Below the pieces are notes generated by a model. The model did not search any database. It saw only the letters and a program-made list of their open reading frames with translations, and was not told the DNA's origin. Positions 25,596 to 26,466 of a DNA stretch of 64,000 nucleotides are shown here, in pieces. A program made the translations under genes and the position numbers. Within the stretch, counting starts at the first letter, position 1; each line of letters starts with the position of its first letter. This DNA is from a virus (lineage: Duplodnaviria > Caudoviricetes). The stretch spans positions 1-64,000 of the IMG/VR virus record IMGVR_UViG_3300021400_001413, one strand, 5' to 3'.

Positions 25596-25772
25596 AAGCT
25601 GAATTGTTTTGTTGTAAGATTAATAGTAGTCTCAATGAGAATCGAACTCATATCTAAGGTTTAGGAAACCTTTGTTCTATCCATTGAACTATAAGACCAA
25701 ATGCCTGCCACTGTAGGCTTAACATTTAAAGAAAAATTTGAAACGAATATGTCGCTCTCTCAGCGAGTAAAG

Positions 25773-26443
25773 TGATTCTGCTGGGGCTCGAACCCAGGAC
25801 CTACTGCTTAGTTTGCTACTCTATGTTACCATAGCCAAACAAAGATAGTATCCTTTCTTCCTCCTCCTAAGTTTCCCCAGGCGATACTAAGTTATTTCAT
25901 AGGGCTAACCCTTTGTTTGTTGTAGTCTGGAATACATTATTACTATATTGAAATTCTTGCAAGATTAGATTTACTTATATAGTCCTTTCTTTTATTTTTC
26001 CGTATCTTGTCCTACAGCTTAACGTATTCACCATAGGGGAGCGCAGTTTATTTCACCTGAAAATACTTAAACTAACTTCATAAGTCTAAAATTTCAACTT
26101 AGGCATTCTTATCAGATACATCTGAATAGAATGTGAGGGTATTCAATATATTTCCCTCATATCTCCTATATACTCTCTACACATTTATGAAGGAAGAAAC
26201 TCATATTCATTTCTTTGTAGATTGACCTTCAATTTAGCACGGTATTATCCTTACACATTATTGGTTAGTGTTGTGGTTCCTCCGCCATACTTAAGCCACA
26301 CATTATAAATTGCAGGTTTGAAGGGAAGGACTTTCACCGTTTTAGGGAGATTCTACTATGGGATTTCTCGCCATAGCACTCCTGTTTATTTATTCACAGA
26401 AACATTTGAAGGCAGTTGCTCTATCCAGCTGAGCTACAGAACC
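25773..26443 (-). tRNA. tRNA-Arg(UCU), intron-containing (exon 1 26443-26409, exon 2 25811-25773)
   Basis: Joined exons give GGTTCTGTAGCTCAGCTGGATAGAGCAACTGCCT-TCT-AAGCAGTAGGTCCTGGGTTCGAGCCCCAGCAGAATCA: acceptor GGTTCTG/CAGAATC, D arm, anticodon stem ACTGC/GCAGT, T arm; no encoded CCA. Confidence 0.9.
25812..26408 (-). ncRNA. group I-like intron (597 nt) in the tRNA anticodon, non-canonical 3' end
   Basis: P1 with U.G pair (exon CUU|C vs GGAG 26382-26379), P2 CTATGG/CCATAG, P3 TCTCCCTA/TAGGAGA, P4 ACGGT/ACCGT, R-like GTGTAGAGAGTA, S-like AAAGGATACTAT, GUAA-capped P9; ends in A. Confidence 0.75.
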
Positions 26444-26466
26444 AAAAAATCCCTCCGCTGAGGGAT
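26444..26466 (-). terminator. intrinsic terminator-like hairpin abutting the tRNA 5' end
   Basis: ATCCCTC-AGCG-GAGGGAT followed by TTTTT then the first tRNA base. Confidence 0.6.

Follow-up and report, generated by a model that had tools for sequence, protein, structure and literature searches.

A tRNA-Arg(UCU) gene of a crAss-like phage is split by a large group I intron that ends in A instead of G

The window, i.e. the whole stretch of DNA that was analysed (64,000 nucleotides), belongs to a 79-kb IMG/VR contig with an estimated completeness of 78%, whose TerL is 52-57% identical to those of crAss-like phages, as expected from a first-pass annotation that had placed the sequence in this group. 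Only two tRNA genes were found in the 79-kb record, both on the minus strand of the window like all other features described here: an uninterrupted tRNA-Arg(CCU) (25626..25698, called by ARAGORN and Rfam) and, 74 nt upstream of it, a split tRNA-Arg(UCU). Exon 1 of the split gene (26409..26443) encodes the acceptor 5' strand, the D arm, the anticodon stem 5' strand and C32, U33 and U34, the last being the -1 nucleotide of the 5' splice site (26409). Exon 2 (25773..25811) encodes C35, U36, A37, A38, the anticodon stem 3' strand, the variable loop, the T arm, the acceptor 3' strand and the discriminator. Between them lies a 597-nt insert (25812..26408), assigned as an ORF-less group I intron from an alignment, covariation, a covariance model and an ORF check.

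The joined exons form a canonical 74-nt cloverleaf with anticodon UCU, and ARAGORN, when introns are allowed, reports a tRNA-Arg(tct) on the minus strand (25772-26443) with a 597-nt intron, in agreement with the earlier proposal of a tRNA gene interrupted between U34 and C35 at a junction that can slide by one C. Removal of the insert at an anticodon-loop position thus restores a canonical tRNA, as is expected of a tRNA intron, for which eight positions are admitted (Williams 2020, bioRxiv 10.1101/2020.01.27.920355). Exon differences from two relatives that carry a homologous intron (L002 and L004) are compensatory in the stems. The prediction that standard tRNA scanners would miss the gene held for both programs at their defaults: ARAGORN and Rfam call only the tRNA-Arg(CCU) (25698-25626). 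On its own strand the insert wholly contains no ORF of 30 aa or more, and the homing endonuclease ORF that had been noted as absent is indeed lacking by this measure. Terminator-like hairpins lie on both sides of the split tRNA (26449-26466 and 25752-25766, minus strand). Together with its T-run, the upstream hairpin stops one base short of the tRNA 5' end, and a similar hairpin followed by ATTT lies ahead of the tRNA-Arg(CCU) at about 25703-25718. An exact-protein look-up of the upstream 153-aa ORF gave no match.

Homology, covariation and a covariance model of the family identify the insert as a group I intron; the first reading had called it group I-like. In an alignment of 32 intron sequences including the window copy (alignment A1), 95% of the cells in helices P2 to P9b are paired, and sliding the 3' partners lowers this figure to 37-46%. 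Compensatory changes that affect both partners are seen at 39 of 64 pairs, and none of 500 shuffles reaches the observed values. This pairing and covariation define the core order P3-P4-P5-P6-P7-P8 with the P3/P7 pseudoknot. Across five anticodon-loop contexts (GAG/CUU, GGA/UCU, GUG/CAU, GGU/ACU), changes in the guide accompany changes in the exon end, the U.G wobble at the 5' splice site being retained every time; the bases 5' of the guide triplet match the start of exon 2, giving P10.

The training set of a covariance model (R1) comprised 12 small introns and excluded the window copy and its large relatives; ten of the 12 came from bacterial genomes and MAGs, for the most part of Ruminococcus and Oscillospiraceae. 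Over the 64 kb it has just two significant matches, both inside the intron and in the correct order: 26374-26162 (P2 to P3', E 1.4e-6) and 25947-25816 (J8/7 to P9.0, E 8.7e-11). A covariance-model hit and covariation through the P3-P7 region, both suggested beforehand as checks, were therefore obtained from R1 and A1, respectively; in the suggested comparison with RF00028, the window copy went unmatched at every E value up to 10. RF00028 does match the smallest phage member of the family (L027, 212 nt) over the full model (E 1.4e-8, 38.6 bits, below gathering) and a bacterial member from Massiliimalia (L106) at 62.7 bits, above the gathering score of 50; at gathering, Rfam reported only tRNAs in the loci of 12 relatives. 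A group II intron was considered and rejected: the insert starts with CAAAUG and not with 5' GUGYG, and an Rfam scan of the window matched no group II family at E up to 10.

The missing RF00028 match, together with the absence of a terminal guanosine described below, would also be expected if the insert were not self-removed at all but were either the remains of a mobile element in a tRNA gene that no longer works or a segment that proteins cut out before rejoining the halves. This explanation is highly improbable, given a conserved, covarying core that the family model matches and a guide that matches the exon; in addition, neither an RNA ligase gene nor an RtcB gene was found in the 79-kb record, and the ends left by group I chemistry (3'-OH and 5'-phosphate) are not RtcB substrates.

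The internal guide GGAG (26379..26382) was located in the first reading exactly where the family alignment places it; GAG pairs with C32-U33-U34 to form P1 with the U34.G wobble, as reflected in the guide/exon covariation, and the AG of CAGGAG can pair with C35-U36 as P10. P2 is a hairpin (GCUAUGG/CCAUAGU, 26355..26377) with double changes at six of seven pairs and 96% of cells paired. P3 (AUCUCC, 26351-26346; GGAGAU, 26166-26161) has double changes at five of six pairs; the helix had been recognised, with limits (26350-26343/26168-26162) slightly off those of the family alignment. P4 (26340-26336/26243-26239), which had been given the same limits, is 100% paired, its first pair being A-U in 17 sequences and U-A in 15. 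Within the P4-P5 domain (26239..26340), P5 (26330-26326/26252-26248) carries a 73-nt extension with a conserved ACAC/GUGU hairpin (26271-26253), and P6 (GAAGG/CCUUC, 26230-26226/26193-26189) has double changes at all five pairs and a 32-nt insert.

The P7 5' strand (26171..26177) consists of G, the bulged A26176 and GAGUA, and its 3' strand (25929..25934) is UAUUCC, both placed by A1 covariation and the latter also by the R1 match. The predicted guanosine-binding pair, G26175-C25930, follows the bulged A26176 and is G-C in 31 of the 32 A1 sequences, including the window copy; the pairs beside it covary (G.U in 15 and C-G in 14; A-U in 23 and G-C in 8). In two relatives (L039 and L057, A1 columns 751-801) a 40-50-nt insertion lies within the P7 3' strand, beside the guanosine-binding pair. 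A 56-nt two-hairpin module at the P7.1/P7.2 position (26104..26159) is optional, being found in six of the 32 aligned introns. P8 (26097-26090/25955-25948) has double changes at five of eight pairs and a 134-nt extension resembling that of L032 in A1. In the 3' domain (25816..25925), P9.0 (CUAC/GUAG, 25925-25922/25819-25816) has a middle pair that is C-G in 15 sequences and U-A in 14, P9 (25919-25911/25844-25836) has double changes at seven of nine pairs and a 66-nt insert, and the hairpin P9b (25834-25821) is capped by GUAA, which accounts for the GNRA-capped hairpin noted earlier near the 3' end. The extra length of the intron comes from the P1 loop, the P5 extension, the P6 insert, the P7.1/7.2 module, the P8 extension and the P9 insert.

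Several other pairings and repeats were rejected. The first-pass annotation had closed a domain of ~220 nt by pairing CCTAAGTT (26103-26096) with AACTTAGG (25873-25866); the complementarity is real, but the family does not share such a 220-nt closing helix (CCUAAGUU/AACUUAGG). CCUAAG-UU is the invariant J3/8 of the family plus the start of P8, which pairs locally with covariation, and CUUAGG in the P9 region occurs in the window copy alone among 68 members. Pairing of GUGUAG with CUAC was rejected, since the partner with which CYAC covaries is GURG at the 3' end. The CAAA present at both ends of the intron might be taken for a target-site duplication; it is missing in L002 and L004 and is regarded as a coincidence. 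Just 5' of the P8 3' strand there is a palindromic 8-mer (CUUGCAAG, 25963-25956, minus strand), and the family keeps a palindrome at this A1 position, the versions being CUUGCAAG, CUAGCUAG and CUUCGAAG. Eight bases leave no room for a hairpin with a normal loop; the element might instead serve in dimerisation or kissing, or act as a site at the DNA level.

More than 50 tRNA genes on viral and metagenome contigs are split by introns that can be aligned with the window copy. A homologous intron occupies the same site in a 76% relative (L002) and in a contig whose helicase is 61% identical (L004), while the search for intron-less alleles proposed for relatives was successful in a 70% relative (L003), which has a tRNA-Arg(UCU) without the intron. 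A 19-nt motif from the intron 3' end was found in 48 viral contigs, always a few bases ahead of a tRNA 3' half, and a looser pattern in which the last two intron bases were left free retrieved 27 more tRNA-Arg(UCU) copies from metagenome contigs. The split genes are mostly tRNA-Leu(UAA), tRNA-Arg(UCU) interrupted after U34, tRNA-Arg(UCU) interrupted after position 36, and tRNAs with anticodon CAU. The first reading knew of no such intron in an Arg(UCU) tRNA of a crAss-like phage, but the setting is not rare: at least 30 tRNA-Arg(UCU) genes in viral contigs and in rumen or gut metagenome contigs have an intron of this family at the same U34/C35 site. Among GenBank phage records, blastn of the locus matched tRNA exons only and a 41-nt query from the intron 3' end had no match. 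A scan with an exact pattern from the P3-P4 region gave no match either.

The same 3' motif is found in chromosomal tRNA-Leu(UAA) introns of about 214-243 nt in Ruminococcus albus 8, R. flavefaciens FD-1, R. callidus and their relatives, from which it is concluded that the phage family is an enlarged and retargeted offshoot. This family of introns in the tRNA genes of rumen and gut phages has descended from the small Ruminococcaceae tRNA-Leu(UAA) intron and has been enlarged by peripheral modules in P5, P6, P7.1/7.2, P8 and P9. The modules are mosaic and appear to have been exchanged between introns: the P7.1/7.2 module of the window copy is 98% identical to that of a tRNA(CAU) intron on a 220-kb contig (L041, 2935-3035), and the first 217 nt of the intron are 91% identical to L002.

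Four contigs (L017, L024, L067 and L082) have two tRNA genes split by introns of this family within a few kb, so that single phage genomes can hold multiple copies. One member (L030, 2430-2852, the same sequence as L114), on a 410-kb contig that has also been deposited as a 'Firmicutes' MAG, lies between exons that seem to give an anticodon stem only (ACAA/UUGU) and no anticodon loop; its guide CAGAAA gives no U.G pair, and it may be a degenerate or repurposed copy.

The window copy lacks the terminal guanosine expected of group I introns: its last nucleotide (omega, 25812, minus strand) is A, where its relatives have G. In A1 (column 976), G is found in 31 of 32 sequences and A in the window copy only. 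U(-1)/G(omega) is found in 51 of 53 resolved family members, the exceptions being the window copy and L030, and omega is G in all 27 further metagenome copies of the Arg34 type, even though the search pattern left that base free. For comparison, the survey by Williams (2020) gives U(-1)/G(omega) in 98.5% of 5292 tRNA introns and attributes the remainder to errors or to C(-1) cases.

No junction that yields a canonical tRNA from the window copy ends the intron in G. Sliding the junction puts C at omega, which is still not G; a junction at the G four bases upstream (GUAG|CAAA) was rejected because it produces an 11-nt anticodon loop; and junctions that give anticodon UCA were rejected because the intron again does not end in G. 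A 'rewired' guanosine-binding site was also rejected, since P7 as defined by the family is canonical. Descent thus makes the window copy a group I intron, but one that lacks the residue needed for the second step of splicing.

The window copy departs from columns that are at least 90% conserved in only two places, both G to A: omega itself and position 25942 (minus strand, A1 column 737), where the change weakens a C-G pair at the base of P8 beside J8/7. A possible explanation is that the A at 25812 reflects a consensus error or a minority allele, most genomes of the population having G and splicing normally. Although the sequence is only one transition away from UAGCAAG, a tail found in L052, this is quite improbable, because a separately produced assembly, Logan contig L121 from run SRR873599, agrees with the window without a mismatch over 545 nt, the A's at both 25812 and 25942 included. 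Given this identity the A at 25812 is not an assembler slip; SRR873599 may be the IMG/VR record's own sample, and the identity shows neither that the allele exists in another sample nor that it is the sole allele of the population.

From group I chemistry, family members would be spliced as follows. The guide GAG would pair with C32-U33-U34 and place the U34.G wobble in P1; free guanosine bound at G26175-C25930 of P7 would attack after U34; P10 (CU with AG) and P9.0 (CUAC with GUAG) would bring in the 3' splice site; and the intron-terminal G would enter the same pocket, after which the exons would be joined into tRNA-Arg(UCU). In the window copy the first step is still predicted, but exon ligation would be strongly impaired. 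Ligation is expected to suffer badly because the pocket that binds the terminal nucleotide still specifies G: its binding pair is the ordinary G-C and shows no retuning. In the Tetrahymena intron, an A in place of omega-G reportedly blocks exon ligation, a block that is lifted when A-U replaces the G-C binding pair; how strongly an omega-A acts is known from other introns only.

Splicing of the window copy, specifically exon ligation, is thus probably impaired, both the catalysis and the defect being deduced from sequence. The allele would yield little or no mature tRNA-Arg(UCU), and the gene, otherwise intact, would have lost its function recently, as the undamaged exons and core suggest. Two considerations run counter to impaired splicing: the rest of the intron and both exons are intact, which would be unexpected in an old pseudogene, and AGA is the main Arg codon, so that loss of the tRNA should be costly unless the host supplies one. 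The abundance of AGA in the phage genes, remarked upon from the outset, is borne out by the codon counts: AGA makes up 59% of Arg codons (23.7 per 1000 codons) and AGG 25%.

These same observations would favour adequate splicing in vivo despite the A at omega, in which case the gene would be functional and splicing might limit the supply of tRNA-Arg(UCU). The 3' splice site would be kept in position by P10 and a 4-bp P9.0, for both of which the complementarity is present, with assistance from the tRNA fold of the exons; conserved columns are violated at only two sites, exons and ribozyme core being otherwise intact, and the tRNA is the only one with anticodon UCU in a record where AGA predominates among Arg codons. 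Such an outcome is nevertheless unlikely, as the window copy stands alone among more than 50 relatives in having A at omega, which argues for strong selection for G, and the unchanged guanosine-binding pair makes no accommodation for A. There is only a slender chance that splicing is completed with adenosine at omega and an ordinary G-C site, P10, the long P9.0 and the exon tRNA fold substituting for recognition of omega-G, or that the intron acts as a slow conditional gate on tRNA-Arg(UCU) supply. The earlier idea that AGA decoding could be gated by splicing is accordingly doubtful for the window copy, in which an A at omega is set against a normal G-C binding site.

With impaired ligation as the preferred interpretation, the A at omega is the sole unusual feature of the locus; neither the intron family nor the Arg(UCU) setting is rare. 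This crAss-like phage may have one working tRNA or two, which makes both its tRNA count and any deduction about its codon supply uncertain. The omega-A allele in an otherwise intact intron offers a clean natural test of the stringency for a terminal G in vivo. More broadly, many phage tRNA genes (Arg(UCU), Leu(UAA), CAU and others) escape default annotation because they are split by introns of a large and modular family without ORFs, and the curated Rfam model misses most of the big copies of this family. The family also illustrates retargeting, the same ribozyme being found in at least five anticodon-loop contexts through small changes in the guide.

Text searches of the literature found no description of group I introns in phage tRNA genes. 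Lak megaphages have 'enigmatic' tRNA introns that remained unclassified after an Rfam test, one of them looking tRNA-like, and the authors knew of no earlier report of phage tRNA introns (Devoto et al. 2019, PMC6784885). Like the window intron, these interrupt tRNA genes of gut or rumen phages and are missed by bacterial tRNA settings (PMC6784885); the Lak introns were left unclassified, whereas the window intron is shown to belong to group I.

One of the closest counterparts is the Ruminococcaceae tRNA-Leu(UAA) intron ('Leu.3Ug') of R. albus 8, R. flavefaciens FD-1, R. callidus and Massiliimalia, a setting that is classical in cyanobacteria and plastids. The two share the 34/35 insertion point, the P1 logic (CUU with GAG and a U.G wobble), the core, and an identical 19-nt 3' motif comprising the P9b GUAA hairpin followed by the P9.0 3' strand; R1, built mostly from these introns, matches the window. 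The window intron differs in residing in tRNA-Arg(UCU) instead of tRNA-Leu, in its length (597 versus about 214-243 nt), in its omega (A, not G), in its location in a crAss-like phage and not a chromosome, and in its insertions in P1, P5, P6, P7.1/7.2, P8 and P9.

Bacteria have 21 tRNA intron settings, 17 of them new, according to Williams (2020), whose list includes the Agrobacterium tRNA-Arg(CCU) ('Arg.5Ug') and Azoarcus tRNA-Ile(CAU) ('Ile2.5Ug') introns. As described there, these two are likewise ORF-less group I introns of the anticodon loop, and relatives of the window intron occupy the same post-anticodon site in Arg(UCU) and CAU tRNAs; the window intron itself is inserted after U34 (position 3 in the Williams numbering), interrupts the anticodon UCU, and is about three times larger.

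With respect to omega, there is a close parallel with the Tetrahymena omega-G to A laboratory mutants, in which a terminal A is said to face an unchanged G-C guanosine-binding pair in P7, just as in the window copy; those mutants were engineered, whereas the window copy is a natural allele present in two assembly contigs.
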